The notes under the pieces: model-generated
Told to the model about the DNA's origin: nothing
The model's input: the letters and a program-made list of their open reading frames with translations, nothing else
Databases searched by the model: none
Position numbers and translations under genes: made by a program
Source of the DNA: a candidate division WWE3 bacterium CSP1-7
GTDB lineage: Bacteria > Patescibacteriota > WWE3 > 9FT-COMBO-53-11
Length of the DNA: 64,000 bases
Direction of reading: 5' to 3'
NCBI GenBank assembly: GCA_001443395.1
Contig: LDXK01000001.1
Span: forward strand, 153,682 to 217,681
Shown here: in pieces, positions 1,239 through 50,043 of the stretch
Position numbering within the stretch: position 1 is the stretch's first letter
Layout of the letters: the number at the start of each line of letters is the position of its first letter

Positions 1239-3439
1239 TACTTTGGTAGTTTATCCTTTTTGGACTTTCCTTGAGCGAGAGGTAAAGAGAAGGTGAAGGT
1301 CGACCCTTCCCCTTTCACCGAACTGAACCTGATTTTCCCGCCCATTTTCTCGACAAGCATTCGAGTGATGAAAAGTCCCAAACCGGTTCCCAAAACATCT
1401 TGAGTTTCCTTCGCCCCAACCCGGAAGAATTTTTGGAAAATTTTCTTTTGGACTTCTTCCGGAATCCCGTACCCGGTGTCACGGACCTCCACAATCAGCG
1501 AATCCTCACCGGGTTGACGAAAGGCAGAAATACTAACGGTTCCCTTATCCCGGTTATATTTGATCGCGTTGGTAACCAAATTCATCAAAACCTCTTTGAG
1601 CTTTCCCGGGTCACAGAGGATCTGCGGAGCAACGGTAATATCAGCCGAGAGCTTAATCCCCCTCTCCCGAGCCATTGGAAGAACCTCATTGGCAACCTCG
1701 GCGAGGATTGGAGAAAAATCGTGAGGCTCGGTCTTAGTAACTAGATTTCCGGCCTCCTCGCGGGAAATCTCCAGAAGGTCGTTGATCAGCTGTTTGAGAT
1801 GATCGTTGGCCTGAGACATAAAATCCAGATTCTCTCGAATGTCCCTGGGAAATTTCTCCTTTGCCTCCGAAACCAGACTGAGAAACCCGCCAATGGCTGT
1901 CGCGGGGGTGCGCAACTCGTGGGTGGCGATAAAGAAGAACTCATCTTTAAGACGGGCCACATCTCGGGCCTTCTCCAGCTCTTGTTTTTGAACCTCCCTC
2001 AAGGACCTGGTCCTCTCTCTCACCTTCTCATCCAGAGAGGTGTAGAGTTTCGCGTTCTCCAAGGCAACCCCGGACTCGTGGGAAACGGCTTCCAAAAGGC
2101 TGGTGTCACGAGTGGTGTAGGGATCACCGGAGCCCTTTTCCCCAAGACAAAGGAACGCTTCTATCTTCCCACGCACGCGGATGGGGGAGCAAATGGCAAG
2201 CCCGCTGCGTTTGAGGTTTTCGATCTGCTCCACGGAGGGAGTTCTCTCGGCCATTTCCTCCGTAAGGAGAGGTCCGTCGCTTTTTTCCATCAGTTGGATG
2301 AGAACATGATCGCGCGGAAAAGTTAAGATCTCACGGTCGGAAAGAGTTTGAGCGTAGATAGGGACGAAAATATTCCTCTTTTCGTCCCACAGGAGGAAAG
2401 CGGCTTTTTTGGTTTTGAAAATTTCCGCGATGGTCCTAGTTAATTTGGTCCCAAAATCTCCGACCGAAGTCGCTCGGTTTAAGACCCCGGTAATTTTTCT
2501 TAATGTTTCTACGTAAAGGTAGGTTCCACGGAAGAAAAATCGTTCCGTAACTCGCTGAAAAATCCGGACAGCCTGAATTCCGGCCAAAAACATAACAATC
2601 ACGGTTGCGGCAACGACAAAAGGAGTTAAAGAATTGACTCTCTCAGGTGCAGCCAACTCCACTATTCGAAGGATAAAGAAGTACATTGACGGACCGGTGG
2701 CGGCGATGAGCAACATCGCAATCCCACTCTGGAGGGCGATGCGGATATCAAAAAGTCTATACCTGAGAATCGCGTATGTAACCGGAATCGTCATCAGGAT
2801 TTGGAAAGAAGAAGTTAGGGAGCGAAATCTGAAAATCTCAAATTGCGGGAGCACTACAGAAACAAAAATCCCGCTTAACGTAAATAACCCCAGTCCGATC
2901 CCCAGATATTGGAGCTGCAGTTTATCGAGACCTTTAGACTTTCGGTAAAAACTGGCGATTTTTACCAATCCCCACAGAGCCAAAGTTATAGTAAAAGCCT
3001 GCATCAACTGATAAAGAGGACCTCGCACCGGCCCAACGCCCCCACCGGAAAATTCCACACCCTCCACCGACAATGAACTCAAGGCTAATATTGTGTTTAG
3101 GACCAATAGAACGAGCAATCCGAGAAATAGTTTCTTATTCAACGAGACTCGATATTTTTCCTTCAACGAGTAAGCGAAAAGAAACAACGAACCTGATGTG
3201 AGGGCCGCGGTCGCGTTTATCATTCTCCCCCAGAAAAGAGACGGGCTTAAGGAGAGCATCAAAATAGCAAATGATATTCCTGAAGAGAAAACTACAAACA
3301 ATCCAAAGAAAATTCGGTCCAATTTTCTTCCGCTTCTCACGAGAATGTAAACACCGATAATAATATTGAGGATGAGAATTCCAATGTTAAGTGAAGAAGC
3401 AGCAGACATGTAATTGCATTGTATAAAAAAGGACAGCAA
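1238..3439 (-). CDS. Sensor histidine kinase (multi-TM N-terminus, GAF-like region, HisKA and HATPase_c)
   Basis: H-box FFFIATHELRTPATAI; N/G boxes NLVTNAIKYN and DTGYGIPEE...GTGLGLFI. About 7 N-terminal hydrophobic helices. An alternative start lies at 3409. Confidence 0.85.
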   Translation of the reverse strand: MLSFFIQCNYMSAASSLNIGILILNIIIGVYILVRSGRKLDRIFFGLFVVFSSGISFAILMLSLSPSLFWGRMINATAALTSGSLFLFAYSLKEKYRVSLNKKLFLGLLVLLVLNTILALSSLSVEGVEFSGGGVGPVRGPLYQLMQAFTITLALWGLVKIASFYRKSKGLDKLQLQYLGIGLGLFTLSGIFVSVVLPQFEIFRFRSLTSSFQILMTIPVTYAILRYRLFDIRIALQSGIAMLLIAATGPSMYFFILRIVELAAPERVNSLTPFVVAATVIVMFLAGIQAVRIFQRVTERFFFRGTYLYVETLRKITGVLNRATSVGDFGTKLTRTIAEIFKTKKAAFLLWDEKRNIFVPIYAQTLSDREILTFPRDHVLIQLMEKSDGPLLTEEMAERTPSVEQIENLKRSGLAICSPIRVRGKIEAFLCLGEKGSGDPYTTRDTSLLEAVSHESGVALENAKLYTSLDEKVRERTRSLREVQKQELEKARDVARLKDEFFFIATHELRTPATAIGGFLSLVSEAKEKFPRDIRENLDFMSQANDHLKQLINDLLEISREEAGNLVTKTEPHDFSPILAEVANEVLPMARERGIKLSADITVAPQILCDPGKLKEVLMNLVTNAIKYNRDKGTVSISAFRQPGEDSLIVEVRDTGYGIPEEVQKKIFQKFFRVGAKETQDVLGTGLGLFITRMLVEKMGGKIRFSSVKGEGSTFTFSLPLAQGKSKKDKLPK

Positions 3440-7255: not shown

Positions 7256-7273
7256 GGTTTGGGAACAAGAAAC

Positions 7274-8746
7274 ATGGAAAAAACCAGGAAACTAATTAAC
7301 CGATTAACTAATAAACTGGTGCTGTTTGCACTCACTATCCTATTCCTACTCCTACTAATTACTTCTACCCTCTTCGCCGCGGGCGCAAAGCTCTTCCTCT
7401 CTCCGGAAACGGGAACCCAGTACGTCGGGTCCTATCTCTCGGTGGATGTGCTGGTGAACACCGGCGGTAACCCGACCAACGCCTACCGGGCGGTCGTCAC
7501 CTACCCCGCCGCCAAGCTGGAAGCGGTCGCGGTTTCGACCGGCGGTTCCGTCTGCTCACTCTGGATCCCACCGACGCCACGGTACTCCAACGACAGCGGC
7601 ACGGCCACTTTTGAGTGCGGGGCGACAAAGGCCTACAAGGGAACTTCCGGGCGGATCGGCCGGATCGATTTCCTCGTCAAGGCGGCGGGAAAGGCGGCGG
7701 TCAGCATCTCGGCCGGCGAGGTCAAAAAGGCCGACGGCATCGGCACGGAGCTCTTGAGTTCCCGGGGCGCCGCCTCCTTTGATCTGCAGGAAACACCGGT
7801 GGGAGTACCGGTGATTTCCTCTTCCACCCACCCGAACCAGAACGCCTGGTACCGGGAAAAATCGGTCGAACTGGCTTGGACGGCGACCGAGGAAGCGGAT
7901 GGATTTTCCTATTCCCTCAACCAAAAAGCCGGCGATACTCCCGACGACATCTCGGAAGGGCCGGCGGCCACCAAAACCTACCAGAACGACGACGGCATCT
8001 GGTATTTCCATCTCAAAGCCCGGCAGACGAGCGGCTGGAGTTTCACCGGCCATTTCCGGATCCAGATCGACAACGCCCCTCCGGAGCCCTTCACGATCGT
8101 GGTTGATCCGCCCACGGAGAAAATCACCCGCGCTCCCCTTCTCTCATTTGCCACCACGGATAAGCTCTCGGGGATCGACCACTACGAGATTGCCATTGAC
8201 GGGGCGGCTCCGCTGACCACGGCTAGCCCCTACCAGTTCGACCGGATCAAGGGCGGGATCCATCCCATCACCGTCCAGGCGATCGACCGGGCCGGCAACA
8301 GCCGGGAGGCCAAGGCCACGCTGGATGTGATCGGCGTTTCTTCCCCGACGATTACCAGCCCGACGGAAGGGGAAAAGATTCCTTTCCTCTCGCCCTTGAC
8401 GACAAGAGGCACTTCCTCCCAACCGGGAACGGTTGAGCTCGCTCTCGACGGCCGGCTCATCGCCGAAGTGAACAGCGGTACCGGAGATTTTGAACACAGC
8501 TACAGAAAGATAATCCTCCCCGGCAACCGCAAGCTGGAGGCAACTCTAATCACGGCGGAAGGAATCGAGAGCGAGCCGGCGACAGTCACTTTTCAGGTGG
8601 ACCTTAGCCGGGTCTATCTGCTCGGGTTGGTTCTCCCCGGCTATCCCGTCTACGCCGTCGCTCTGTTGATTTTCGCAGGATTGGCAACTCTCTTCATCCT
8701 GAAGATAAAGCGATGGAGGAGATTGCGAAAGCCGAAACAGATTTGA
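7274..8746 (+). CDS. Cohesin-domain surface protein with Ig-like repeats and a C-terminal TM anchor (paralog 1)
   Basis: The N-terminal TM/signal is followed by a cohesin-like module (LFLSPETGTQYVGSYLSVDVLVNTGGNPTNAY...FECG...GRIDFLVKAAG). Then come THPNQNAWY, DNAPPEPF, SGIDHYEI and AIDRAGN blocks and a C-terminal helix plus KRWRRLRK. An alternative TTG start lies at 7259. Confidence 0.75.
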   Translation: MEKTRKLINRLTNKLVLFALTILFLLLLITSTLFAAGAKLFLSPETGTQYVGSYLSVDVLVNTGGNPTNAYRAVVTYPAAKLEAVAVSTGGSVCSLWIPPTPRYSNDSGTATFECGATKAYKGTSGRIGRIDFLVKAAGKAAVSISAGEVKKADGIGTELLSSRGAASFDLQETPVGVPVISSSTHPNQNAWYREKSVELAWTATEEADGFSYSLNQKAGDTPDDISEGPAATKTYQNDDGIWYFHLKARQTSGWSFTGHFRIQIDNAPPEPFTIVVDPPTEKITRAPLLSFATTDKLSGIDHYEIAIDGAAPLTTASPYQFDRIKGGIHPITVQAIDRAGNSREAKATLDVIGVSSPTITSPTEGEKIPFLSPLTTRGTSSQPGTVELALDGRLIAEVNSGTGDFEHSYRKIILPGNRKLEATLITAEGIESEPATVTFQVDLSRVYLLGLVLPGYPVYAVALLIFAGLATLFILKIKRWRRLRKPKQI

Positions 8747-10162: not shown

Positions 10163-10196
10163 TTGGACGCTCCGATCAAAGCATCGGAGCTAACAA
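10163..10196 (+). repeat. Hairpin-core intergenic element, copy A1
   Basis: TTGGACG|CTCCGAT-caaagc-ATCGGAG|CTAACA. The 7-bp stem is perfect. Confidence 0.7.
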
Positions 10197-10212
10197 ATCT
10201 TGCCACGTTCGT

Positions 10213-10248
10213 TTGGACGGCTTCCGCCTTGAGCGGAAACCTAGTAAT
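10213..10248 (+). repeat. Hairpin-core intergenic element, copy A2 (in tandem with A1)
   Basis: TTGGACGGC|TTCCGC-cttga-GCGGAA|ACCTAGTAAT. Confidence 0.75.
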
Positions 10249-10305: not shown

Positions 10306-12117
10306 GTGAGCACATCTATGCGGACCAATTTCCTCCGGAAAATTAAAAGGGCGTTTCTGCCTTTGGTCGTTCTTGTCGCGCTGGTCCTTTCTCTCGCTCC
10401 CCTGCTGCCGGTCCTAGCCGGCAACGCCGTTCTCTACCTCTCTCCTTCGGGCGGGACTCGCTACGTCGGGTCGAGCTTTGCCGTTTCGGTTCGAATCAAC
10501 AGCGGCTCGCACACCACCAACGCCTACAAGGCGGTGGTAAAGTTTCCGACCGCCCTGCTCGCGGCCACCTCGGTTTCGGTGGGCGGTTCCATCTGCACTC
10601 TCCAGATCAGCGGCTCCCCCAGCTACTCCAACAGCAGTGGTACCGTTAATTTTGAGTGCGGTCACCCCGGCTCTTTCTCGGGAAGCGCCGGGATAATCGG
10701 GACCGTTACTTTCCTCGCCCGGGCGGCCGGCACCGCTAACCTGACCTTTACCTCCGCCTCCCAAGTGAAGGCGGCCGACGGTTTCGGCACCGAGGTCCTG
10801 GGATCCACCAGCGGCGCGATTTTCGACATCCAGCCGGCGCCGGTGAGCGGGCCGGCCGTTTCCTCCGCCACCCATCCCAACCAGGGTTCCTGGTACGCGC
10901 TCAAAGATGTCAGCCTAACTTGGAACCAACCGGCTGGTTCGGACGGCTTCTCCTACCTGCTCAATCAAAAATCCGGCACCATTCCTGATGGAGTCTCCGA
11001 AGGAACCGCAAAGGCCATCGGCTACGAGGGGCTAGCGGACGGAACCTGGTACTTCCACATCCGCGCCCACGGGGACGGCGGCTGGGGAAACACGACCCAC
11101 TTCCGGATCCGCATCGACACCACCCCGCCCGACCCCTTTGAAGTCACCTCAGAACCGCCGGCCGAGAACATCGATTCCGCACCGCTGATCATCGCCTCCG
11201 CCACCGACCGCCCCTCCGGCATTGACCACTACGAGATCTCCATCGATGGCGGCGACTTCGTCCCGGTTCCCGGAATGCCGTACCAGTACGAACGGATCCC
11301 GGAGGGAACCCACACCCTCACCGTCCGGGCGGTGGACAGGGCCGGCAACTACCGCGACAGCTCGCTGGTGATCCACGTGATTGATGTTGTAAACCCCCGC
11401 ATCACCCAACCCGCTAACGGTTCCTACCTCCCCATCCTGGAACAGCTGGTGATCAAGGGAACGGCACCGGCGGGACTGGTCGAGCTTTACCTCAACGGCG
11501 AGCTGATCGCCCAGATCGAGAGCGACGGGAACTTTGAGTTCACCCACAGCGCCTTCCTTCGACCGGGCCGGTATAAGCTTACGGCGATAGCGGTCACGGA
11601 CCGGGGCATCGTCAGCTCCCCCGCCGAAGTCCAGTTCACGGTGGATCCGCGAGCGGTTAGTCTCTTCGGCCTGAATCTCCCCGGCTGGCTGGTCTACAGC
11701 TTCCTGCTGGGGATCATCATCTTGCTCCTCATCCTCCTGATCCGCTATCTCCGCAAGGCCGCCGGCTTTGACGAGCACGTCCGCCAGGACCTGGATCGGA
11801 TCGAGGAGGAAGAGAAGAGGGACTTTGAACAGGCCGAGAAGGAAATGGAGCGGGCGGTCGAGGGAACGCTCGCCGGCCTGACCGAATCCCAGGTCCACCA
11901 GCTCGAACACGAGTTGGAGGAGAAGATCAGGGAATCCGAGGGGGAGGCTCGCGAGAAGCTGGAGGGAGAACTAGACCGGATCCGCCGCCATCACCCGCTG
12001 GCGGGGCGGAAATTCCGGTTTCCCCGGATTAAAATTCCCCGCTTCTTCCTCATCTTTTGGGAGAGGCGAAAGAAGAAAAAAGGAGAGAAAAAAAGAGGAA
12101 CCTACAGGAGATATTGA
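10306..12117 (+). CDS. Cohesin-domain surface protein (paralog 2) with a TM anchor and a charged coiled-coil cytoplasmic tail
   Basis: Collinear with 7274..8746 (cohesin-like module, THPNQGSWY, DTTPPDPF, SGIDHYEISIDG, AVDRAGN). A TM helix follows, then an E/K/R-rich tail of about 120 aa. GTG start, with an alternative ATG at 10318. Confidence 0.75.
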   Translation: MSTSMRTNFLRKIKRAFLPLVVLVALVLSLAPLLPVLAGNAVLYLSPSGGTRYVGSSFAVSVRINSGSHTTNAYKAVVKFPTALLAATSVSVGGSICTLQISGSPSYSNSSGTVNFECGHPGSFSGSAGIIGTVTFLARAAGTANLTFTSASQVKAADGFGTEVLGSTSGAIFDIQPAPVSGPAVSSATHPNQGSWYALKDVSLTWNQPAGSDGFSYLLNQKSGTIPDGVSEGTAKAIGYEGLADGTWYFHIRAHGDGGWGNTTHFRIRIDTTPPDPFEVTSEPPAENIDSAPLIIASATDRPSGIDHYEISIDGGDFVPVPGMPYQYERIPEGTHTLTVRAVDRAGNYRDSSLVIHVIDVVNPRITQPANGSYLPILEQLVIKGTAPAGLVELYLNGELIAQIESDGNFEFTHSAFLRPGRYKLTAIAVTDRGIVSSPAEVQFTVDPRAVSLFGLNLPGWLVYSFLLGIIILLLILLIRYLRKAAGFDEHVRQDLDRIEEEEKRDFEQAEKEMERAVEGTLAGLTESQVHQLEHELEEKIRESEGEAREKLEGELDRIRRHHPLAGRKFRFPRIKIPRFFLIFWERRKKKKGEKKRGTYRRY

Positions 12118-12180: not shown

Positions 12181-12220
12181 TTGGACGGCTCGCTTCGCGA
12201 ACCTAGCATTTATCCCAACT
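12181..12220 (+). repeat. Hairpin-core intergenic element, copy A3, with a tail complementary to hrcA codons
   Basis: TTGGACGGC|TCGC-ttc-GCGA|ACCTAGCATT. Positions 12207..12220 (CATTTATCCCAACT) are the perfect reverse complement of 12247..12260. Confidence 0.8.
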
Positions 12221-12947
12221 AGAAGGATGGGGCTAATTCAGTTAGGAGTTGGGATAAATGTCTAACCTGTGGGACAACCACTGGATAGTTGAGGCGGGCC
12301 GGCCCCAAAACCGCGACCACTCCCCCTTTCTGCCCGTTGCCCCAGTGAGAAAAAACCAAACCGACCGGCTCCAGGTTCGCCACTCCCAGCTCCCTCCCAA
12401 TCAGAACCGTGACCGCTTTGGGATCGGAGGCGCGGGAAAAGAGATCCTGCAGGAGATCAAAACTGTCCAAAAGGTTCAGCGCCGCTCGGGTCACGTTGAT
12501 ATCAAAGAATTCAGGATGCTCCAAGACGTTTTTCGTGCCGGCGTGGAAAACCGTTCCTTCATGTGTGGTGACAATGCCGATGTAGCCGGCGGCTTCCGCC
12601 AGGGCCAGGGCCGCTTCCCGCAGCATCCGCCCGGAACTCTGCCGGTACTGAAAAAGGCGCTGTTTCAGCGCCACTTCCTGCAAAACCGGAATCGCCTGCT
12701 CCTGCATTAATGAGGTCAGGAAATAGCGTAGCCCCAACTCGGAGGGGCGGCGGCCGGCGGAAGAGTGTTCCTTTTCGATAAATCCCTCCCGATGCAGGAT
12801 CGCCATCTCGTTCCGCACCGTCGCCGGCGAGAAAGCAAACTGGCGCTTTTCGGTCAGATCCTCCGAACCGATCGGCTGGGCACCGGCAATAAATTCCTCA
12901 ATGATTGCTTTCAAAATGTCGACCTGTCTCGCAGTGAGTTCCGCCAT
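12219..12947 (-). CDS. hrcA: Heat-inducible transcription repressor HrcA (short form, 242 aa)
   Basis: N-terminal winged-helix signature LTARQVDILKAIIEEF...PIGSEDL...SPATVRNEMAILHREGFIEKEHSSAGRRPSELGLRYFL. Confidence 0.85.
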   Translation of the reverse strand: MAELTARQVDILKAIIEEFIAGAQPIGSEDLTEKRQFAFSPATVRNEMAILHREGFIEKEHSSAGRRPSELGLRYFLTSLMQEQAIPVLQEVALKQRLFQYRQSSGRMLREAALALAEAAGYIGIVTTHEGTVFHAGTKNVLEHPEFFDINVTRAALNLLDSFDLLQDLFSRASDPKAVTVLIGRELGVANLEPVGLVFSHWGNGQKGGVVAVLGPARLNYPVVVPQVRHLSQLLTELAPSF

Positions 12948-17589: not shown

Positions 17590-17817
17590 ATGCCACACCT
17601 GAAAAGTGCCTACAAAAACCTTCGCAAGAGCCGCCGCAAAACGGTCATCAATCTGAAGGCCAAAAATAACCTGAAGAAAGCTCTCAAGGGACCGCTGACG
17701 CTCAAAACATCCGCCGCGGTCACAAAAGCGATTGACAAGGCCGCCAAACGCGGCATTATCTCCGACAACAAAGCGGCTCGGCTGAAAAGCAATTTGAGCA
17801 AAAAGATTAAAAAATAA
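17590..17817 (+). CDS. rpsT: 30S ribosomal protein S20
   Basis: MPHLKSAYKNLRKSRRKTVINLKAKN... is a typical S20. Confidence 0.9.
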   Translation: MPHLKSAYKNLRKSRRKTVINLKAKNNLKKALKGPLTLKTSAAVTKAIDKAAKRGIISDNKAARLKSNLSKKIKK

Positions 17818-17890
17818 TGGACGGCCGCCTGCGGCGACCTAGATTCGGTGAATGGCCGAATAACGGCCGCCTGCGGCGATCTAACATTTT
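17817..17890 (+). repeat. Tandem pair of hairpin-core elements (A4a 17817..17845, A4b 17852..17890)
   Basis: A4a is ATGGACGGC|CGCC-tgc-GGCG|ACCTAGATT. A4b is ...ACGGC|CGCC-tgc-GGCG|ATCTAACATTTT. The 21-nt core repeats with a 42-nt period. Confidence 0.8.
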
Positions 17891-17901
17891 GAAGAGACAA
17901 A

Positions 17902-18462
17902 ATGGCAGAGCCAACACCCTCGACCGCCAAGGAAAGCATTGAACTCCTTCCTCCTCTAACCAAAACCGGGAAAGCCAAAGTCATCTCCTTTTGGGCGCGC
18001 ACCGCCGGCATTCCTTTGATTATTATTCTGCAGCTGACTTTTTTGGGAATTTTTTCTTTCCGGGCAAAGCTGGGAATGGATCTGTTAAAGCTCTCTACAT
18101 CGGTGGTCGAGAAAGAAAAGATCGTGGCGGATGCCGCCGATTTCGAACAAACCTTCCGCAAAACCCAGCGCAAGCTGGAACAGATCGCTCAGGTCGGGAA
18201 TGGGCTTTGCGTTTCCTGTACCATCGAAACCCTCAACAAAATCAAGCCTGCCGCCGTAATCCTGAACACCCTCAGCTTGGAAGGAGAGAAAATTCAGTTG
18301 ATTGCGGAAACGCCGCAGGGCCTGACTTTCGCCACCTTCGTTACCAACATCATTAAAGATGAAGGAATTCGCGAGGCCCTCATCACTTCAGGGAGCCTCA
18401 ACCGGGAAGGAAACTTTGTCTTCACGATGGAACTGGTTATGGACAAGGACAAGATTAAATAA
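17902..18462 (+). CDS. Single-pass membrane protein, PilN-like (tentative)
   Basis: Short cytoplasmic N-terminus, one TM (IPLIIILQLTFLGIFSF), then an alpha/beta ectodomain of about 130 aa. The architecture resembles the PilN family only; no pilM is adjacent. Confidence 0.35.
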   Translation: MAEPTPSTAKESIELLPPLTKTGKAKVISFWARTAGIPLIIILQLTFLGIFSFRAKLGMDLLKLSTSVVEKEKIVADAADFEQTFRKTQRKLEQIAQVGNGLCVSCTIETLNKIKPAAVILNTLSLEGEKIQLIAETPQGLTFATFVTNIIKDEGIREALITSGSLNREGNFVFTMELVMDKDKIK

Positions 18463-18480
18463 ATGAGATGATTGGTTACT

Positions 18481-18565
18481 TTTGCAAAGCAAAATTGCAA
18501 CCGAGCGTAGCGAGGACAGCACATTTGCAAAGCAAAATTGCAACCGAGCGTAGCGAGGACAGCAC
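18481..18565 (+). repeat. Perfect tandem duplication of a 42-nt unit (18481..18522 and 18524..18565)
   Basis: The unit is TTTGCAAAGCAAAATTGCAACCGAGCGTAGCGAGGACAGCAC, present twice and separated by one A. The pair is flanked by a perfect 15-nt direct repeat, AGATGATTGGTTACT, at 18466..18480 and 18576..18590. Confidence 0.9.
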
Positions 18566-23044: not shown

Positions 23045-24043
23045 CTAATATCCAAGTGCTTTGAGGCCGGGGAGTTCTTTGCCGGCGAGAAATTCCAGCA
23101 TCGCTCCCCCGCCCATCGAAACGTACCCCATTTTTTCAAGCAGGCCGAAGGCCGAAAGTGCCGCAATCGTGTCCCCTCCGCCGACAATCGTCTTGCCAGG
23201 ATGCTCGGCCAAGGACTTCGCCACCGCTCTCGTTCCCGCGGCATACTTATCATCCTCCCACTTACCCATTGGTCCGTTCCAAACCACCGTCTTTGCGTTC
23301 TTGACTATTTCGGTAAACTTCTTCTCGGTTTCCGGCCCGATATCAAAAGTCTCAACGGCGTCTACCGGGAAAACGGCCCGGGTGATTTTTCTCAAACTCT
23401 GGTCAAACATCAGGAGACCCCCGAGGAGAACAGAATCGGCCACTTCCGCAAAGTTGGAAACCAGCGGCGCTTTCGTCTCGGTTTTTGCCCCTCCCAGGAT
23501 AAAAACCAGCGGCCGTTCCGGATTTTCCAGCACTCCGCCAAGTTCTTTTACTTCTTCCGCCAACCGCAAACCGGCATAGGCCGGAAGGTGCTGCGGAACG
23601 CCGGCGATCGAGGCGTGAGCGCGATGAGAAGCGGCAAAGGAATCATTGACGTAAAGGTCGCCCAGCTCCGCCAATTCCTGGGCAAATTTCGGATCGTTTT
23701 CTTCCTCGCCCTCCCAAAAACGCAAGTTCTCCAAAACCGATGCCCGATTCTCCGATTCTCCAATTCTCAAATCCTCAAAAAACCCCACCTTTTCCCCAAG
23801 TTCTTTTGAAAACCAATCCGCAATCGGTTTTAAAGACAGGGCGGGATTAAGCTTCCCCTCGGGGCGTCCGGCGTGGCCAATGATCAAAACCTGCGCTCGA
23901 TTCTCCAACAAATAATTGAGAGTAGGAACAAGGGCTTTGATACGATAATCCTCTCCCACCTCCCCGTCTTTGATCGGTACGTCAAGATCACCTCGCAGCA
24001 GAACCCGCTTTCCCGAAAGTTCCGCCTCTTTAAGGATTTTCAT
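23045..24043 (-). CDS. pgk: Phosphoglycerate kinase
   Basis: MKILKEAELSGKRVLLRGDLDVP..., GGAKTETK, GGGD. The start was set at the internal ATG at 24043, because the ORF track's N-terminal 18 aa overlap the upstream gene. Confidence 0.95.
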   Translation of the reverse strand: MKILKEAELSGKRVLLRGDLDVPIKDGEVGEDYRIKALVPTLNYLLENRAQVLIIGHAGRPEGKLNPALSLKPIADWFSKELGEKVGFFEDLRIGESENRASVLENLRFWEGEEENDPKFAQELAELGDLYVNDSFAASHRAHASIAGVPQHLPAYAGLRLAEEVKELGGVLENPERPLVFILGGAKTETKAPLVSNFAEVADSVLLGGLLMFDQSLRKITRAVFPVDAVETFDIGPETEKKFTEIVKNAKTVVWNGPMGKWEDDKYAAGTRAVAKSLAEHPGKTIVGGGDTIAALSAFGLLEKMGYVSMGGGAMLEFLAGKELPGLKALGY

Positions 24044-24674
24044 TTCCTTCCTGATTTTCCTCGGTAATAAATCGCAGACTCTTTCCCATTTCTTCAAAGA
24101 TCACCGCGTAATCCGCTTCGCCGTATTTATTCCAAGCCAGTGTGAAATCATTCTCTCCTTTTGCAAAGAAGATGATTTCTTTTTCAGGAGTGGTAATTCG
24201 TTCACCATAGATATCGTTGGCAAAGAAACTGCAGGCGGATTGGTCGCTCTCGCAGGCGGTTTTACCGCGAGCGGCGTTGGAGGACACGGACAGGCTGACA
24301 TAGTCTTTCGGCAAGATCTCGCCTTCCTGTTGAGCTTTCGGTTGAAAAGTTATCAAAGAGGTATTGGCTTCGGTTGCCTCCCAATTATCAGGGTAGCGAA
24401 GGCCCAGACCGTGAGTTTCGCTGCGGTACACCAACCAGTTTTCGTAGGGATTGGGACCGGCTAGGAAAGAGGCAGGAACATAGCGCTGCCAGAGCACCAC
24501 CGCCAGATAGCCGGCGGAAAAAACCACCGCGGTTGCCAGGATGAAAAGGAGGGCAAGGCCAGCCCTTCGCCAAGTAACTCGGCGTTTGGGCTTGGTCTCA
24601 ATCTCTTTTGATTCGTAAGACCTCTTGACGGAATCGGTAGCTTTTTCCTCCTCGCCAGAGATTTCGGAATCCAC
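24030..24674 (-). CDS. Membrane-anchored hypothetical protein
   Basis: Acidic N-terminus, one TM (LALLFILATAVVFSAGYLAVVLW), and an ectodomain of about 140 aa. GTG start. It lies between gap and pgk. Confidence 0.55.
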   Translation of the reverse strand: MDSEISGEEEKATDSVKRSYESKEIETKPKRRVTWRRAGLALLFILATAVVFSAGYLAVVLWQRYVPASFLAGPNPYENWLVYRSETHGLGLRYPDNWEATEANTSLITFQPKAQQEGEILPKDYVSLSVSSNAARGKTACESDQSACSFFANDIYGERITTPEKEIIFFAKGENDFTLAWNKYGEADYAVIFEEMGKSLRFITEENQEGNENP

Positions 24675-24830
24675 AAAAATAGAGTAGCATTTAGAGTGTG
24701 TTTAAATTCGTCCGCGAATCGGGATTGGTGCAGCTGATACTGTTGATCGCAATCGGAGTGATTCTCTATTACAACTGGCCCAAAATCTGGGAGGGAGTGA
24801 TCGTAATTCTCAATAATCTGCAGACGAGAT

Positions 24831-24878
24831 TTAAGCTTTAATCAGACTTCCGACCCGGATCACGTGCTCGACTAGCGC
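24831..24878 (-). repeat. Second, divergent copy of the 3' terminal codons of gap
   Basis: The minus strand reads GCG CTA GTC GAG CAC GTG ATC CGG GTC GGA AGT CTG ATT AAA GCT TAA, which is ALVEHVIRVGSLIKA*. The gap C-terminus is ALVEHVVRVGNLISK*. Of 10 differences in the 13 aligned codons, 8 are synonymous third-position changes. Confidence 0.85.
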
Positions 24879-24882
24879 GTTT

Positions 24883-24940
24883 GAGGACGGCTTGCCTGCG
24901 GCAAACCTAGCTCCGCTGAATTTTGGATACCAAACTAAAC
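24883..24940 (+). repeat. Hairpin-core intergenic element, copy A5, with a long tail abutting the gap stop codon
   Basis: GAGGACGGC|TTGCC-tgc-GGCAA|ACCTAGCTCCGCTGAATTTTGGATACCAAACTAAAC. The tail is about 70% identical to 50052..50090. Confidence 0.8.
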
Positions 24941-25954
24941 CTACTTGGAGATTAGATTTCCAACCCGGACGACGTGTTCAACCAGTGCAGCGGAGTAGCC
25001 CCACTCATTATCGTACCAAGCAAGAACTTTAACCAAATCGCCGTCCACCACCCGCGTCATTGCCAGATCGACAATTGAGGCGTGCGGATCTTTGATGATA
25101 TCCGAGGAAACGATCGGATCTTCCGTCACTGCCAGGACCTTTTCCCAGCGGGGGTCTTGGGAGGCATCCTTAAGGATCTTGTTGACCTCCACCACGGAGG
25201 TCTTGCGTTTGGCCAAAAATGTAAAGTCCACAATCGAACCGCAGACCACCGGGACTCGCAGCGCAATTCCATCGAAGAGGCCCTCCAAACCATTGAGAGA
25301 CTTGACGACCGACTCCGCCGCTCCGGTGGAAGATGGAACAATGTTCATCGCCGCTGCCCTTCCCCGCCGGGGATCTTTGGTGGCCGGCCCATCCACCAAA
25401 CTCTGCGTCGCAGTGTAACCGTGGGCGGTGTTAAGCATTCCCTTGATCACGCCGATTTTTTCCATCATCACCGCCGCCACGGGAACGGCCGCGTTGGTGG
25501 TGCAGGAAGCGTTGCAGGTCACCAGCGGAAGATCGCCTGTGAAGAGCGCATCGTTGGCGCCAATGAGGGCGTAGGGCACATTCCCCTTGGCCGGAGCGGT
25601 GATGACCACCCGCTTGGCGCCGGCCTTGATATGCTTTTCGGCCTCTTCAAGTTCATCGAACCGGCCGGTGGATTCAACGACAACATCAATATCCATCTCT
25701 TTCCAAGGCAAAAGTCCGGGGTCTTTTTCGGAAAGGATTTTGATCTTTTTGCCACCGACTACCAAGCTTCCGTCAGAGATCTTAACTTCCTTGTCGTAGC
25801 GCCCGTAAACAGTGTCGTAGCGCAGAAGGTAGGCCAGTGTCTCCGGCTCGCCCAGGTCGTTGATCGCCACAAATTCAAGCTCCGGCCGCTCAAAGGCAAT
25901 TTTGAAAAAGGCCCGACCGATCCGGCCGAAGCCGTTAATCGCAACTCGGGTCAC
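24941..25954 (-). CDS. gap: Type I glyceraldehyde-3-phosphate dehydrogenase
   Basis: RVAINGFGRIGR, SCTTN active site, WYDNEWGYS. The GTG start at 25954 forms a GTGA overlap with the trx stop. Confidence 0.95.
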   Translation of the reverse strand: MTRVAINGFGRIGRAFFKIAFERPELEFVAINDLGEPETLAYLLRYDTVYGRYDKEVKISDGSLVVGGKKIKILSEKDPGLLPWKEMDIDVVVESTGRFDELEEAEKHIKAGAKRVVITAPAKGNVPYALIGANDALFTGDLPLVTCNASCTTNAAVPVAAVMMEKIGVIKGMLNTAHGYTATQSLVDGPATKDPRRGRAAAMNIVPSSTGAAESVVKSLNGLEGLFDGIALRVPVVCGSIVDFTFLAKRKTSVVEVNKILKDASQDPRWEKVLAVTEDPIVSSDIIKDPHASIVDLAMTRVVDGDLVKVLAWYDNEWGYSAALVEHVVRVGNLISK

Positions 25955-26217
25955 AGCTGTTCCTCCACCCACCGTTTGAACTCCTCTTTAGGACGGGCGC
26001 CGGTGGTTCGCGCCACTTCCTTGCCATCTTTTTCAATCACGTAGGTGGGGATCGACATCACGCCGTACTTTTGGGCCATCTCACCCTGAGCATCCACATC
26101 GTATGCCACAAATTCCGCCTTGCCGGCGAGTTCTTTTTCCAGCTCCTCAATCGTGGGTTTCATCACATTGCAGGGTGGACACCAAGTCGCCCAAAAATCC
26201 AAAACTTTAACCGCCAT
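25951..26217 (-). CDS. trxA: Thioredoxin-fold protein with a WCPPC active site (88 aa)
   Basis: MAVKVLDFWATWCPPCNVMKP...MSIPTYVIEKDGKEV. The start is set at the internal ATG at 26217. Confidence 0.8.
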   Translation of the reverse strand: MAVKVLDFWATWCPPCNVMKPTIEELEKELAGKAEFVAYDVDAQGEMAQKYGVMSIPTYVIEKDGKEVARTTGARPKEEFKRWVEEQL

Positions 26218-32021: not shown

Positions 32022-32036
32022 TTGCACTATTGATTA

Positions 32037-32069
32037 TTGGACGGCCGCCTTAGGAGGGCTAAGGATAAT
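32037..32069 (+). repeat. Hairpin-core intergenic element, copy A6
   Basis: TTGGACGGCCG|CCTTAG-gaggg-CTAAGG|ATAAT. Two more hairpins follow at 32072..32095 and 32095..32127; the second contains CCTCGCTACGCTGCGG, which is related to the 42-nt unit core. Confidence 0.65.
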
Positions 32070-32125
32070 CATTGTTTAAAGCTTCGCTTTAACAAATAAG
32101 CTCCTCGCTACGCTGCGGGTGCTTA

Positions 32126-32155
32126 TTGACATATACCCCCCGGGGGTATTATATT
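32126..32155 (+). promoter_or_regulatory. Sigma70-type promoter (TTGACA-N17-TTATAT) with an embedded CsoR-type operator, ATACCCCC-C-GGGGGTAT (32133..32149)
   Basis: A perfect GC-rich 8+1+8 palindrome fills the -35/-10 spacer. It resembles known CsoR operators (ATACCC...GGGTAT type). Confidence 0.75.
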
Positions 32156-32164
32156 AATGAAGAA

Positions 32165-32209
32165 ATGGACGGCTCGATCAAGCGAGCCTAGCATTTTGAA
32201 AGAACCAAA
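32165..32209 (+). repeat. Hairpin-core intergenic element, copy A7, inside the csoR 5' leader
   Basis: ATGGACGGC|TCG-atcaag-CGA|GCCTAGCATTTTGAAAGAACCAAA. It ends at the csoR ATG. Confidence 0.8.
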
Positions 32210-32473
32210 ATGAAAGCCTCCAAAGAAAGCGTTAAGCGCCGGCTCCAAATCCTCAAGGGACAGCTTGGGGGATTGGAAAAGATGGTCGATGAGGACCGGT
32301 ATTGCATGGATGTTCTTACCCTATCTCTGGCAATCCAGCGGGCGATGAAAGAGATGGACCACTTGATCATGGAAGAGCACATGAACAGCTGTGTCCAGGA
32401 GGGGGTTCGATCCGGCAAATCTAAGGAAGTTACCAAGGAGTTGATGGATCTCTTTGAGGTAATCCGCAAATGA
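32210..32473 (+). CDS. csoR: CsoR-family Cu(I)-sensing transcriptional repressor
   Basis: 87 aa with the LKGQLGGLEKMV motif and the C...H-x3-C ligand pattern (RYCMD...EEHMNSC). Confidence 0.85.
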   Translation: MKASKESVKRRLQILKGQLGGLEKMVDEDRYCMDVLTLSLAIQRAMKEMDHLIMEEHMNSCVQEGVRSGKSKEVTKELMDLFEVIRK

Positions 32474-33009
32474 AAAAAGACTGCTGCGAGGAACCAACAA
32501 AAGAAAAATCCCGCACCTTTAGGATCCCCCTCGCCGGATTGCTCATCGGCGCCTTTACCATTCTCACCCTGATAGGTGGATTCCTCCTGGCCACCGGTTC
32601 CGGACCGGCAAAGCTGGGAGGAGGAGACGGCCAGGTCTACACCGACCACACTTCTTTCGAGTGGGGCGAGATCAACATCAACGGCGGCAACGCCACTCAC
32701 GAATTTGCGATTGAGAACCGCGGCACCGGCGAGCTGGAGTTGGCCAACATCCTCACCTCCTGCGCCTGCACCAGCGCTCAAATTACGATTGAGGGGGTCG
32801 TTAGTCCTTACTTCGGAATGCATTCCACTTCTTCTTGGGTTGGAAAAGTGGCACCCGGAAAAACGGCGACCGTGTCGGTCATCTTTGACCCGCTCTTTCA
32901 CGGGCCGACTGCCACCGGACCGATCGAGAGGTTGATCTCGGTTAAAACCAACGATCCGAAAAATGAGAACATGGAGTTTAATCTCACCGGAAATGTCATT
33001 AAGAAATAG
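32470..33009 (+). CDS. DUF1573-like membrane-anchored protein with a CxC motif
   Basis: TM, then FEWGEININGGNATHEFAIENRGTGELELANILTSCACT.... Confidence 0.6.
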   Translation: MKKDCCEEPTKEKSRTFRIPLAGLLIGAFTILTLIGGFLLATGSGPAKLGGGDGQVYTDHTSFEWGEININGGNATHEFAIENRGTGELELANILTSCACTSAQITIEGVVSPYFGMHSTSSWVGKVAPGKTATVSVIFDPLFHGPTATGPIERLISVKTNDPKNENMEFNLTGNVIKK

Positions 33010-33937
33010 GCTTGGAAAAAAGCGCAAAATCCTCGCGGTGACACTCAAAAAATTCCTCCGCACCCCCTTACCGCTCTACCTGGCGCTCCTGCTGGCGATT
33101 AACGTGGGAATCCTTACTGCCGCCGGCGGTTATCTCCTCTTAACCCGCGGTTCTTCAACTCAAGATCCGGAAAATCTGGTTAAGGATCTCAAGGCGGAGG
33201 TCCTGCCGGCGGCAGGCTACATCACTTCAATCACCTGGGGAGACACCGGTAAAAAACTAATTGAGGTTGGCGCCATCGACGAGAAACAATACCAACAGCT
33301 CTTCAACTCCCCCACCAACGGCATGGATGAGTTAGACATTCTTAAGGGCGGGTCAACCAAACCGATCGGGATCAATGAAAATAATTCCCAATTCGTGGTT
33401 GATACCCTCTGGGCTTTCGGATTGACCCAAAAGAGCAAAGTGCTGGATGAGGGCCCGATGAAAAACAGCGGTACCGATCTGGGAAACTTCGCTTCCACCG
33501 GCGGGTGGACCTTGGGAAAAGAATCCGCCACCAAACTCTATAGCAGCCAAGAGCTGGTCCAGCTGAACGATTTCCAACAGGACCTGGTGAAGAAAATCGC
33601 CGAAAGCATCTACCGCCCTTGCTGCGACAACCCCACCTCTTTTCCCGACTGCAATCACGGAATGGCGGCGCTTGGTTTAATCGAATTGGAAGTCGCCGCG
33701 GGACTTTCGGAGGAACAGATCTATCGCGACGTCCTGGCTTTTAACTCTTTCTGGTTCCCTCAAACCTACTTGGAGATTGCGGTCTACTTTAGCCAACAGG
33801 GCAAGGGATGGGGCGAGCTTGACCCCAAAACGATTCTCGGCTCCGAATACTCCTCTGCTTCCGGTTCGGCGGTGATCAGCAGCCAAGTTAAGGACGTCCC
33901 TGGCCTGGACTCCGGCGGTGGCAGCTGCGGCGTATGA
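32993..33937 (+). CDS. Membrane-anchored Cys-rich hypothetical protein
   Basis: TM (LPLYLALLLAINVGILTAAGGYLLL). The ectodomain carries YRPCCDNPTSFPDCNHGMAALG. The ATG at 32993 was chosen. Confidence 0.5.
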   Translation: MSLRNRLGKKRKILAVTLKKFLRTPLPLYLALLLAINVGILTAAGGYLLLTRGSSTQDPENLVKDLKAEVLPAAGYITSITWGDTGKKLIEVGAIDEKQYQQLFNSPTNGMDELDILKGGSTKPIGINENNSQFVVDTLWAFGLTQKSKVLDEGPMKNSGTDLGNFASTGGWTLGKESATKLYSSQELVQLNDFQQDLVKKIAESIYRPCCDNPTSFPDCNHGMAALGLIELEVAAGLSEEQIYRDVLAFNSFWFPQTYLEIAVYFSQQGKGWGELDPKTILGSEYSSASGSAVISSQVKDVPGLDSGGGSCGV

Positions 33938-47738: not shown

Positions 47739-47791
47739 GGCTTAAGTTTAACAAACGGAGTTTGCTAGATCGCTGAAGGCGGTCGTCCAAA
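47739..47791 (-). repeat. Hairpin-core intergenic element, copy A8 (minus orientation), with its tail ending at the PEGA gene start codon
   Basis: The minus strand reads TTGGACGAC|CGC-cttca-GCG|ATCTAGCAAACTCCGTTTGTTAAACTTAAGCC, followed by GTG. Confidence 0.7.
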
Positions 47792-49245: not shown

Positions 49246-50043
49246 CTAGACGCGTTTAAACCAGAGGATCCCGGAAATCGGGGCGTCCCGGCGCTGATGG
49301 ACTAGTGCAAATCCTTGCCGGAGAAGGAAATCCGTCAAATCTTCCTGATTGGTGCGCTTCCCCGGGAGCACGTGGTACTCGAGACGAATTTCCTTGATCT
49401 TTTTTAAAATATCGGCTGGGGTTCGGTAGAGAATCTCGTACTCGGCGCCCTCGCAATCAAGTTTTAAAAGATCGATTGCCTTGAGGTGATTTTCCTCAAA
49501 AATATCTTGGAGAGTCACACACGTCACCGCAATCTTATCGCCGTGGCGGGAAAAGAAAGAGCTCAACGGAGAGAAACGCGTTAAGAAAAATGTTCGCTTC
49601 CCCGCCCGCCCGGCTACCCCCAACTCAAATGGCTCGATTTTGCCCTCTAACCTGTTGACTCTAATATTTTGAGACAGGAGATAGAAAGAATAAGTCGCGG
49701 GTTCATAGGCCAAAACTTTAGCCCCCTGCTGAGCGGCATAAAGCGAAAATGATCCCAAACTCGCCCCGACGTCCACCACGACCGAACCCTTTGATACCTT
49801 ACCGTAATCTCTGCGGACAAAGGTTCCGATGATCTCCTCTATCTCAACCCACTGCGCGTAACGCATGGCCAACCCGTTGCGGAAAATAAAAAGTCCTTCG
49901 GTTTCAGATCGGGTTATAAACCGCCAAAGAACTTTCGGCCAATTCTTAAGCAGAAAAATTAGACCGAGAGTGTATCGAAGTCTTTTCGTCAAATCTTTCA
50001 CTTTGCGAGAGCAAATTGCAACCGAGCGTAGCGAGGACAGCAC
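49246..50043 (-). CDS. FkbM-family SAM-dependent methyltransferase
   Basis: VVDVGASLGSFSLYAAQQGAKVLAYEP...FELGVAG. The first 14 codons of the ORF-track version lie inside the repeat at 50001..50043. An in-frame GTG at 50001 is an alternative start. Confidence 0.75.
   Translation of the reverse strand: MLSSLRSVAICSRKVKDLTKRLRYTLGLIFLLKNWPKVLWRFITRSETEGLFIFRNGLAMRYAQWVEIEEIIGTFVRRDYGKVSKGSVVVDVGASLGSFSLYAAQQGAKVLAYEPATYSFYLLSQNIRVNRLEGKIEPFELGVAGRAGKRTFFLTRFSPLSSFFSRHGDKIAVTCVTLQDIFEENHLKAIDLLKLDCEGAEYEILYRTPADILKKIKEIRLEYHVLPGKRTNQEDLTDFLLRQGFALVHQRRDAPISGILWFKRV

Follow-up and report, generated by a model that had tools for sequence, protein, structure and literature searches.

A probable mobile hairpin that brings a spare gene end into the last codons of gap in a WWE3 bacterium

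Introduction

The gap gene (type I GAPDH) of candidate division WWE3 bacterium CSP1-7 appears to end twice. In the 64,000-nucleotide (nt) stretch of DNA analyzed here (contig LDXK01000001.1, positions 153,682 to 217,681; referred to as the window, with coordinates counted from its first letter), the translated end of gap is followed by a hairpin and then by a second block, which lies outside the reading frame and again spells out a GAPDH terminus, mostly with synonymous differences. A first-pass annotation of the window had described both copies, calling the first the real end and the second a synonymous copy. The locus thus raises the question of which of the two ends is new, how it arrived there, and why a block that is not translated should look like coding sequence. 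Comparison with relatives reverses the roles of the two copies, and the account that we consider probable is that a mobile hairpin settled in the last codons of this essential gene and brought a spare gene end along, through a guide-type insertion that was followed by later recombination. Relatives are given here as contigs (L plus a number) and as proteins of a protein collection (P plus a number); the metagenome contigs come from ENA and JGI.

Results

Two diverged gene ends flank a hairpin at gap

The 3' end of gap is laid out as follows, with the two copies of the gene end called proximal and distal.

24941..25972, minus strand: gap (type I GAPDH) coding sequence (CDS) as now translated, with Pfam domains Gp_dh_N and Gp_dh_C; the identical protein is found on six contigs
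24885..24994, minus strand: 110-nt insertion relative to the empty allele, made up of proximal gene end, spacer, tail, and core hairpin; absent from L001
24941..24994, minus strand: proximal block, the translated end SAALVEHVVRVGNLISK plus stop, imported as judged from relatives; its last 42 nt (from GTT GAA) equal those of L218 except for the stop codon (TAG/TAA)
24988..24995, minus strand: left arm X', which reads CTCCGCTG on the gene strand, lies at the insertion's left edge, and pairs with the tail; the empty allele has TAGCAATG here
24919..24940, minus strand: spacer of 22 nt with a decayed canonical left hairpin (TTTGG at 24930..24934, TAT, CCAAA at 24922..24926), resembling the L103 module CATTTTGGTTTACCAAAATG
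24911..24918, minus strand: tail X, CAGCGGAG, guide-like, directly 5' of the core and complementary to X'
24885..24910, minus strand: core hairpin CTAGG-TTTGCC-GCA-GGCAAG-CCGTCC, 26 nt, with the CTAG and CGTC that are invariant in its family and a stem that covaries family-wide
24831..24884, minus strand: distal block SNALVEHVIRVGSLIKA plus stop, untranslated now and, by the same comparison, a relic of the recipient's native gap end; from codon 5 on it equals the functional end of P0001/L001
24698..24841, plus strand: conserved convergent open reading frame (ORF) of 47 amino acids (aa), whose last 11 nt overlap the distal (native) gap end; tblastn finds it with 81 to 87% aa identity in L095, L221, and L090

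The ends, stops, and peptides of both copies are as the first-pass annotation had placed them. The translated C terminus reads GYSAALVEHVVRVGNLISK (ALVEHVVRVGNLISK) before the TAG at 24943..24941 of the minus strand, and 24878..24831 of the same strand encodes ALVEHVIRVGSLIKA followed by a stop. Its count of 10 nt differences in 13 aligned codons, eight at third positions plus the replacements V/I and N/S, proved exact. The block itself is real but runs two codons further than described, so that the repeat covers 18 codons per side and has 21 nt differences, of which third positions account for 13. When the same substitutions were placed at random, the amino acid identity of the two copies was reached in 0 of 20,000 trials. 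The complementarity of the tail is perfect over 8 nt: plus-strand CTCCGCTG (24911..24918) is the complement of CAGCGGAG (24988..24995), the first 8 nt of the repeated block. This confirms that the observation at gap is real and far beyond chance. The predicted single-strand fold of the unit consists of the 8-bp X'/X stem, a small TTTGG/CCAAA hairpin, and the core (z = -1.9, a modest value). The 110-nt insert contains no ORF and encodes no recombinase.

An overlapping plus-strand gene had been considered as a cause of the codon periodicity. The ORF at 24698..24841 is real and conserved (a Pfam search gave no match), and we rejected it as the cause because the overlap amounts to only the last 11 nt of the distal block.

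Strains without the insertion carry the distal block as their native gene end

The nearest GAPDH in the protein collection, P0001 (97% identity), ends in GYSNALVEHVIRVGSLIKA, the distal peptide. Its contig, L001, lacks exactly 110 nt (24885..24994), and gap there passes directly into the distal sequence, indicating that the distal copy is the native end and that the translated proximal end arrived with the hairpin. Relatives in which gap runs directly into an end of the ALVEHVIRVGSLIKA type with no element, which the first-pass annotation had proposed to look for, exist, and they show the second copy to be the original one. The 58-nt element that it had delimited is present as spacer, tail, and core, but the mobile unit is longer and includes the proximal gene end. 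L001 and the window are 95.4% identical across gap. Just after the hairpin they differ by four mismatches in four codons (TCA AAC GCG CTA in the window versus AGC AAT GCT TTA in L001, both S N A L), and from four codons past the hairpin there are 0 mismatches over 517 nt.

The filled structure is found on six contigs with the window's exact GAPDH protein and on at least eight independently assembled ENA and JGI contigs overall. Since the data are metagenomic and hold several co-occurring strain variants, one might suspect that an assembler had stitched together two strain variants of the gap end, a concern voiced at first pass. The identical structure in these independent assemblies from different samples excludes this, and the 137 sites of the hairpin family and the recurrence of the layout at other genes (see below) point the same way, leaving an artefact next to no chance.

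Contigs L095, L097, and L090 are also empty at gap, each with its own native end. A second filled lineage, L218 to L221 (protein P0251), carries the insertion at the identical nucleotide, with a gap CDS only 85.6% identical to that of the window. From GTT GAA CAC GT through stop, spacer, tail, and core, its unit shows just two differences from that of the window in ∼98 nt (TAG/TAA and one G/A in the spacer). In its distal copy, SSALVEHVVRVGNLIKA plus stop, this lineage has the end type that is native to the empty contig L097; the gap CDSs of L097 and L218 are 99.3% identical. As each filled lineage has a near-identical empty sibling, the distal block tracks the host lineage and the unit does not. 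Despite this close relationship, the proximal and distal copies of L218 differ at 10 of 54 nt, so that a fresh duplication made in place is excluded and the 3' part of the proximal copy must be foreign. Gap ends of the ISK type are native only in distant lineages, e.g., L087. Within the GAPDH cluster of at least 90% identity, the last ∼17 residues occur in at least six versions, and the native gap end of L097 is a hybrid. A scan of species genomes with the GAPDH alignment (patterns WYDNEWG and NIVPSTGA, both universal) found a best locus only 60% identical.

Comparison of filled and empty alleles reveals a 110-nt insertion polymorphism at 24885..24994. Four parts make up the insert: a replacement 3' end (18 codons including the stop), a decayed AT-rich mini-hairpin, an 8-nt tail complementary to the unit's first 8 nt, and the 26-nt hairpin. 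By the same comparison, the block past the hairpin is the recipient's original gap end, which now lies outside the reading frame and is not selected in place.

Further variation surrounds this locus. The 5' part of pgk (window 23800-24050 versus L001 1934-2168) is ∼69% identical, against 95% for gap and 100% over the 517 nt after the hairpin; by these identities, the 2.7 kb around pgk and gap are a sharp recombination mosaic between the window and L001. Population variants occur within the unit in L002, where ATAGG replaces the otherwise invariant CTAGG at ∼4063 (window equivalent 24910), and in the distal block of L005, where AAC has become ACC (N to T) at ∼1115 (window equivalent 24880). Separating the distal gap end from the small convergent ORF, an extra insert of ∼90 nt, TTTCCTCGCTCCGCTCGG...CACAAAGTAAAC, is present in L218, L220, and L221 (∼4130-4215 in L218 coordinates) and absent from the window, L001, and L097.

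The architecture recurs at hrcA, metK, and a further gene

A second locus in the window, hrcA, was described at first pass as having the same layout.

12219..12947, minus strand: hrcA CDS (Pfam HrcA); its last 13 codons (12219..12257) are the proximal copy, LSQLLTELAPSF plus stop
12247..12260, minus strand: hrcA left arm X', CATTTATCCCAACT
12207..12220, minus strand: hrcA tail X, AGTTGGGATAAATG, a 14-nt perfect complement of X' that covaries with X' in L099
12183..12206, minus strand: hrcA core hairpin CTAGGTTCGCGAAGCGAGCCGTCC, identical in L099 and L114
12142..12180, minus strand: hrcA distal block, again LSQLLTELAPSF plus stop, a relic end; relatives L092, L093, and L094 have no duplication

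The description holds: the 13 codons encode the same peptide in both copies, with seven differences that are all synonymous third-position changes (p about 5e-4). Beyond the window, duplicated gene ends of this architecture were found at gap (two lineages), hrcA (three variants), metK, and one ORF of 201 aa, which bears out the earlier argument that one architecture at unrelated essential genes reflects a mechanism and not an accident. Among the metK loci examined, no allele without the element was found. Over nine proximal/distal pairs (gap 2, hrcA 3, metK 3, and the 201-aa ORF), 106 differences distribute as 19, 14, and 73 across the three codon positions. The hrcA copy of L114 has a duplication of 24 codons, in which both copies read NYAVVVPQVRHLSQLLTELAPSF plus stop with 20 differences, 0 of them nonsynonymous.

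A constrained copy next to a drifting one would yield many replacement changes, so the 73 of 106 differences at third positions argue that both blocks have served as real ends; the copies look synonymous because each diverged as a working gene end in a different strain. At gap this separate evolution is directly visible, the distal blocks being equal to the native ends of empty strains.

A coding appearance could also mean that the distal copy is still used, with both copies under protein-level selection, either through precise excision (reversible end switching) or through an event at the RNA level such as splicing or ribosome bypass. Elements of the IS200/IS605 type normally excise precisely (PMC3201880), all nine distal copies keep the frame and a stop at the same position, and the orthologous hrcA distal copies of the window and L099 differ at third positions only (six of six). 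However, the gap distal blocks exactly match the native ends of empty strains, which accounts for their coding look without selection in place, and the proximal copy has its own stop, so that no read-through is needed. Moreover, the AAC-to-ACC change in L005 is nonsynonymous, and the repeat periods of 110 and 77 nt give no frame relation. The sole Rfam match at gathering threshold was a tRNA, and nothing matched at E ≤ 1 in 24780..25040, neither a ribozyme nor an intron; a self-splicing intron or known ribozyme was rejected on these grounds. Continued use of the distal copy is thus very improbable.

The hairpin belongs to a family of small repeats

To place the hairpin among related sequences, we used a pattern scan of metagenome contigs and contigs of relatives (about 1.05 Mb, from one WWE3 clade), which yielded at least 137 distinct sites. 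The core of the family has an invariant CTAG 5' and an invariant CGTC 3' of a GC-rich stem of 5 to 9 bp. The inner pairs of the stem covary, with 95% of cells paired and 27 double-sided changes against 9.0 ± 2.2 in shuffles (0/500), although possession of a stem had been a criterion in choosing the cores. Of 38 cores, 30 keep a T.G at the third stem pair. The family hairpins have no protein-coding capacity of their own, and the viral contigs searched gave four chance matches, none with a hairpin.

A canonical element of ∼45 nt consists of a left hairpin, CATTTTG-TTTCTT-CAAAATG, joined to the core and followed by CATT(T). The left CAT opens, on the opposite strand, an ORF of 60 or more codons in 60 of 77 canonical copies, compared with 129 of 385 control CAT sites. 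Gene 3' ends are not the usual setting of the family, most of whose members sit at start codons and lack long duplications. The gene-3'-end setting noted at first pass therefore holds for the composite members with a duplicated gene end, which are those of gap, hrcA, metK, and the unnamed 201-aa ORF, but not for the family at large. An in-frame mini-ORF running from the old ATG through the core to TAG was rejected, as core lengths are not enriched for multiples of 3.

Presence and absence of canonical copies can be followed directly in four start-codon filled/empty pairs, in which an insertion of 43 to 49 nt repeats CAT(T) alone (flanks 92 to 95% identical, leaving an uncertainty of a few nt in the boundaries). 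Two to three complete units (left hairpin plus core, period 43 to 44 nt) form direct tandem arrays in L136 (10800-10874 region), L217, L212, and L163, and the copy number of arrays varies between otherwise identical contigs (L136 versus L168 and L217 versus L137). At the spacer equivalent to window ∼32100, L091 has no family hairpin at all, and L095 (∼3170-3230) carries a 58-nt inverted doublet of such hairpins (GGAC..CTAG-CAATGGA-TAG..GTCC) that is absent from the window. These comparisons show that the hairpin at gap is the core of a small-repeat family gained and lost between strains of one WWE3 clade. In the literature searched, such abundant elements appear not to have been described before in WWE3 or the candidate phyla radiation (CPR), nor do small elements that carry replacement gene ends.

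In L175/L176 (∼2330-2420), an element lies between perfect 19-nt direct repeats, CATTTTTCCAGATTTCTTT, which are the antisense of a gene's ribosome-binding region and ATG. This looks like a 5'-end counterpart of the gene-end duplications and is apparently recent.

The filled/empty pairs bear on another explanation of the second gene end, a long target-site duplication coupled to insertion, in which the core would duplicate 15 to 75 nt of its target, keep the gene intact, and leave the copies to diverge in place. The 19-nt repeat of L175/L176 fits this idea, as do a perfect 24-nt repeat at the start of both L218 copies and the fact that the duplications always extend through the stop codon. Yet the canonical pairs repeat CAT(T) alone. 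The insertion in L218 is very recent, judging from the 99.3% identity to L097, but the rest of its two copies differs at 10 positions, and its proximal part is the window's unit. The 73 of 106 third-position differences and the 0 of 20 nonsynonymous changes in L114 are incompatible with neutral drift of one copy, and the L114 tail finds its pairing partner inside the repeat and not at its start. We thus regard a duplication of this kind as quite improbable.

Further family members in the window are the following; those at 10.2, 17.8, 32.1, and 47.7 kb are of the start-codon type.

10165..10244, minus strand: two family hairpins upstream of a plus-strand gene at 10306
17819..17883, minus strand: tandem pair, one unit degenerate, with left hairpin CATTTTG..CAAAATG, abutting the ATG of a plus-strand gene at 17902
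32035..32061, minus strand: degenerate family hairpin after a FemAB-family gene
32167..32212, minus strand: canonical copy, consisting of left hairpin CATTTTGGTTCTTTCAAAATG and core, directly adjoining the ATG of a csoR-like gene (32210..32473)
47765..47788, plus strand: family hairpin upstream of a minus-strand gene starting at 47738, with tail GTTTG and flank CAAAG
62239..62260, minus strand: member of the AAAAG-tail subfamily with left hairpin CTTTTTAGC..GCTAAAAAG

Two long minus-strand ORFs, 32188-33063 and 17610-18173, are antisense to csoR/DUF1573 genes and a PilN-like gene and read through hairpin copies, the former stopping in the TAG of a CTAG core. Both are probably spurious.

The tail is complementary to sites on both sides of the core

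The bases just 5' of CTAG are complementary to a site upstream, which gives rise to the left hairpin, and also to the bases after GTC. Among 50 sites with tails other than AAATG, a perfect 6-nt upstream complement was found in 32 (control mean 3.1, maximum 9), and complementarity of the tail to the right flank after GTC in 17 (control mean 3.6, maximum 9). Tails and flanks form matched subfamily pairs, namely AAATG/CATTT, GATTG/CAAT, AAAAG/CTTT, GAAAG/CTTTC, and AATAG/CTAT. The complementarity extends over 8 nt at gap and 14 nt at hrcA, where tail and partner covary (CATTTATCCCAACT/AGTTGGGATAAATG in the window and CATTTGGC/GCCAAATG in L099). The right junction after GTC(C) falls on the same nucleotide in two gap lineages with distal alleles that diverge right from base 1, and it reads GTC/CAATT in the hrcA copies of the window, L099, and L114, though the distal copy of L114 starts 11 codons earlier.

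Formally, these sequence relations suggest that the tail behaves like the guide of IS200/IS605 elements, whose guide, located 5' of the hairpin foot, recognizes cleavage and target sites by base pairing (PMC3201880). Engineered IS608 with extended guide-target pairing selects 12/17-nt targets in vitro (PMC5934647), which makes a principle of extended pairing physically plausible.

Recombination without any insertion mechanism might account for the second gene end if a passive REP-like repeat lay downstream of a donor gap, hrcA, or metK. Gene end and hairpin would then have entered together, with a left junction made by homologous recombination and a right junction that was illegitimate or homeologous, and the tail complementarity would stem from, e.g., mRNA 3' structure. 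The gap locus is indeed a strong recombination mosaic: the left junction of L218 lies within an 11-nt identity block (GTTGAACACGT), and the distal copy of the window turns 100% identical to L001 after four codons. That no transposase was found, either in window ORFs by Pfam or in the 1.05 Mb by tblastn, is also in keeping with it. However, illegitimate joints would scatter, whereas the right junction is shared to the nucleotide by two gap lineages and by three hrcA variants. One architecture is found at four genes, the tail complementarity is family-wide and subfamily-specific, and canonical copies at start codons are cleanly present or absent. On this balance, recombination alone is an unlikely explanation.

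A possible route of insertion

From the arrangement of canonical and composite copies, we infer the following mechanism. Canonical members of ∼45 nt would insert beside a short site complementary to their own tail, usually CAT(TT), i.e., the antisense start codon, so that the short motif alone is repeated. In formal terms, they would work as single-strand ("peel and paste") elements of the IS200/IS605 type do. Decayed remains of a canonical left hairpin (TTTGG-TAT-CCAAAAT; cf. CATTTTGGTTTACCAAAATG of L103) lie in the spacer behind the imported gap stop, suggesting that a canonical copy once lay just 3' of an ISK-type gap. A copy in such a position could be mobilized from an upstream guide-matching site inside the gene, which would generate a composite unit with the gene's last codons. 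The unit would survive only where the carried end restores the gene, that is, at the corresponding site of that gene in a different strain, and it may have arrived there by extended tail-target pairing (8 to 14 nt), by homologous recombination, or by both. Later recombination between filled and empty alleles would create mosaics near the junctions, which would explain the switch of the window's distal copy to L001 sequence after four codons, the 23 recipient-type nt of the L218 proximal copy, and the hybrid native end of L097.

Several observations weigh against this account. Pfam searches of ∼45 window ORFs found no Y1/HUH transposase, RAYT, or other transposase domain, gene tables of about 150 kb of relatives list no transposase, and tblastn of the 1.05 Mb of related contigs with IS608, IS200, and RAYT queries gave no match at E ≤ 1, a weak negative because the queries were approximate. 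A bias in replication strand is not clear: with GC skew as a proxy, 16 sites have a G-rich and 31 a C-rich CTAG-sense strand (p = 0.04), a split that runs in the direction expected merely from lying antisense to genes. The progenitor state, a gene end plus element with no distal copy, was not seen among the alleles examined. Pure transposition explains neither why the first 23 nt of the L218 proximal copy are of the recipient type nor why the window's distal junction codons TCA AAC GCG CTA match neither L001 nor its own proximal copy, and extra recombination events must be assumed for both details. In L218 the gap tail has one mismatch to its partner without covariation. The proposed mechanism does not account for the origin of the gene-specific tails (8 to 14 nt), and the short motif repeated at both ends prevents the cleavage positions from being fixed from sequence.

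Two variants of the route were rejected by reasoning. A simple Campbell-type single crossover of a circle with one gene end predicts reciprocal chimeras, which are absent in the window and L218, and fold-back priming as the origin of the tail needs microhomologies that are absent at hrcA.

A more far-reaching version of the guide-type account would be a natural DNA-guided insertion system, in which the hairpin and a 5- to 14-nt tail define both ends and the target by base pairing, via a putative CPR enzyme. Variants with gene-specific tails would carry a spare terminus and home, from strain to strain, to one fixed codon of an essential gene (gap, hrcA, or metK), while canonical copies would replace translation-start regions. 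The tail and junction patterns make this possible, and we put it forward only tentatively.

Other repeats and genes of the window

A second repeat family is represented by two tandem 43-nt units, ACTTTTGCAAAGCAAAATTGCAACCGAGCGTAGCGAGGACAGC, at 18478-18563 and by a third copy 31 kb away, at 49999-50041. A related repeat, GCAACCGAACGGAGCGAGGACAGC, lies just 3' of hrcA in L094 (∼800-850), and a similar motif is found near 32.07 kb of the window. Upstream of the csoR-like gene (32210-32473; Pfam Trns_repr_metal), a perfect GC-rich palindrome, ATACCCCCCGGGGGTAT, at ∼32125-32141 is conserved in L095 and L091 and is probably the operator of that gene. The paralogous genes for Ig/Big-domain surface proteins at 7259-8746 and 10306-12117 share blocks of 73 to 79% identity at an offset of about 3047 nt. 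In L092, a bAvd-like gene is located beside such surface-protein genes, which hints at a diversity-generating retroelement in the clade. ARAGORN reports a tRNA-like gene at 54751-54824 with an undetermined 2-nt anticodon, which the Rfam tRNA model does not report at gathering threshold.

Discussion

With the distal block recognized as the recipient's own end, the puzzling "synonymous second gene end" gains a concrete and testable explanation. The last ∼17 codons of the essential glycolytic gene gap emerge as a hotspot of recombination and insertion in a CPR lineage, and gene-end relics of this kind can mislead annotation, scans of nonsynonymous to synonymous substitution rates (dN/dS), and strain-resolved assembly. 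Because the elements of ∼45 nt are placed exactly at start codons, many genes have a translation-start region supplied by them, and this matters for the calling of genes and for their expression in CPR genomes. If the tail acts as a guide, the family would be an instance of naturally reprogrammed, long-guide single-strand DNA insertion, a principle so far only engineered. Were the tentative guided system true, the engineered long-guide IS608 (PMC5934647) would have a counterpart in nature, and selfish elements would have a new, harmless route into essential genes.

Some classes of mobile sequence do not fit. A DDE-type miniature inverted-repeat transposable element was rejected, since element-constant terminal inverted repeats are lacking, the length of the repeated flank goes from 3-5 nt up to 75 nt, and tail and flank vary together. 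We likewise rejected a template repeat/variable repeat pair of a diversity-generating retroelement, because the substitutions are of every type, mostly synonymous, and not adenine-specific; Pfam searches of the window ORFs found no reverse transcriptase.

Close formal parallels exist with IS200/IS605 and its ORF-less derivatives, the palindrome-associated transposable elements. Both have a subterminal imperfect hairpin, both have a short sequence 5' of the hairpin foot complementary to the boundary and insertion sites (PMC3201880; here at the level of sequence only), and both insert beside a fixed short motif without a real target duplication, as in the four filled/empty pairs. Subfamilies in which tail and flank change together are also common to the two, and the 8- to 14-nt tails parallel the engineered long guide of IS608 (12/17 nt; PMC5934647). 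Unlike IS200/IS605, one core hairpin seems to serve both ends in the WWE3 family, the distance between left site and hairpin varies from 13 to about 75 nt with a second hairpin bridging it, and composite copies carry host gene ends. In addition, no TnpA was found in the 1.05 Mb searched by tblastn with approximate queries, and a lagging-strand bias is not clear from the GC-skew proxy.

Similarities also exist to the REP/REPIN-RAYT system. Short GC-rich imperfect palindromes follow a conserved tetranucleotide (CTAG in WWE3, GTAG in REPs), a stem mismatch is conserved (T.G in the WWE3 family, a bulge in Escherichia coli REPs; PMC8266576), and the copies are numerous, noncoding, and mainly intergenic, with occasional inverted doublets (L095). 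REPINs are inverted doublets (PMC3116915), whereas the WWE3 copies are mostly singlets with a left hairpin or direct tandem arrays, the doublet of L095 being the one inverted doublet seen. In contrast to REPs, they are placed precisely at start codons with a variable guide-like tail, and some lie inside former coding sequence; no RAYT was found in the related contigs with the approximate tblastn query.

The imported gene end calls to mind two other systems. In homing of the intron or intein type, flanking exon sequence is coconverted. Here too, diverged lineages that each have a near-identical empty sibling share one unit at exactly corresponding positions of a gene, and substitutions cluster beside the junction. 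The WWE3 unit differs in that it has neither an endonuclease ORF nor a ribozyme and is not removed from the message but ends the gene with its own stop. Integrase-type elements, such as phages and genomic islands, enter the 3' ends of tRNA and protein genes and supply a replacement end in their attP. As in these elements, the target gene at gap stays intact because the incoming DNA supplies a diverged 3' end, the original end persists beyond the insert as a direct repeat, and the repeats differ like alleles. The WWE3 insert has no integrase and no cargo, and its junction is a hairpin with a complementary tail, not a recombinase core site. The attP-type gene rescue seen in integrase islands would thus occur in WWE3 without a recombinase and on the scale of 110 nt.

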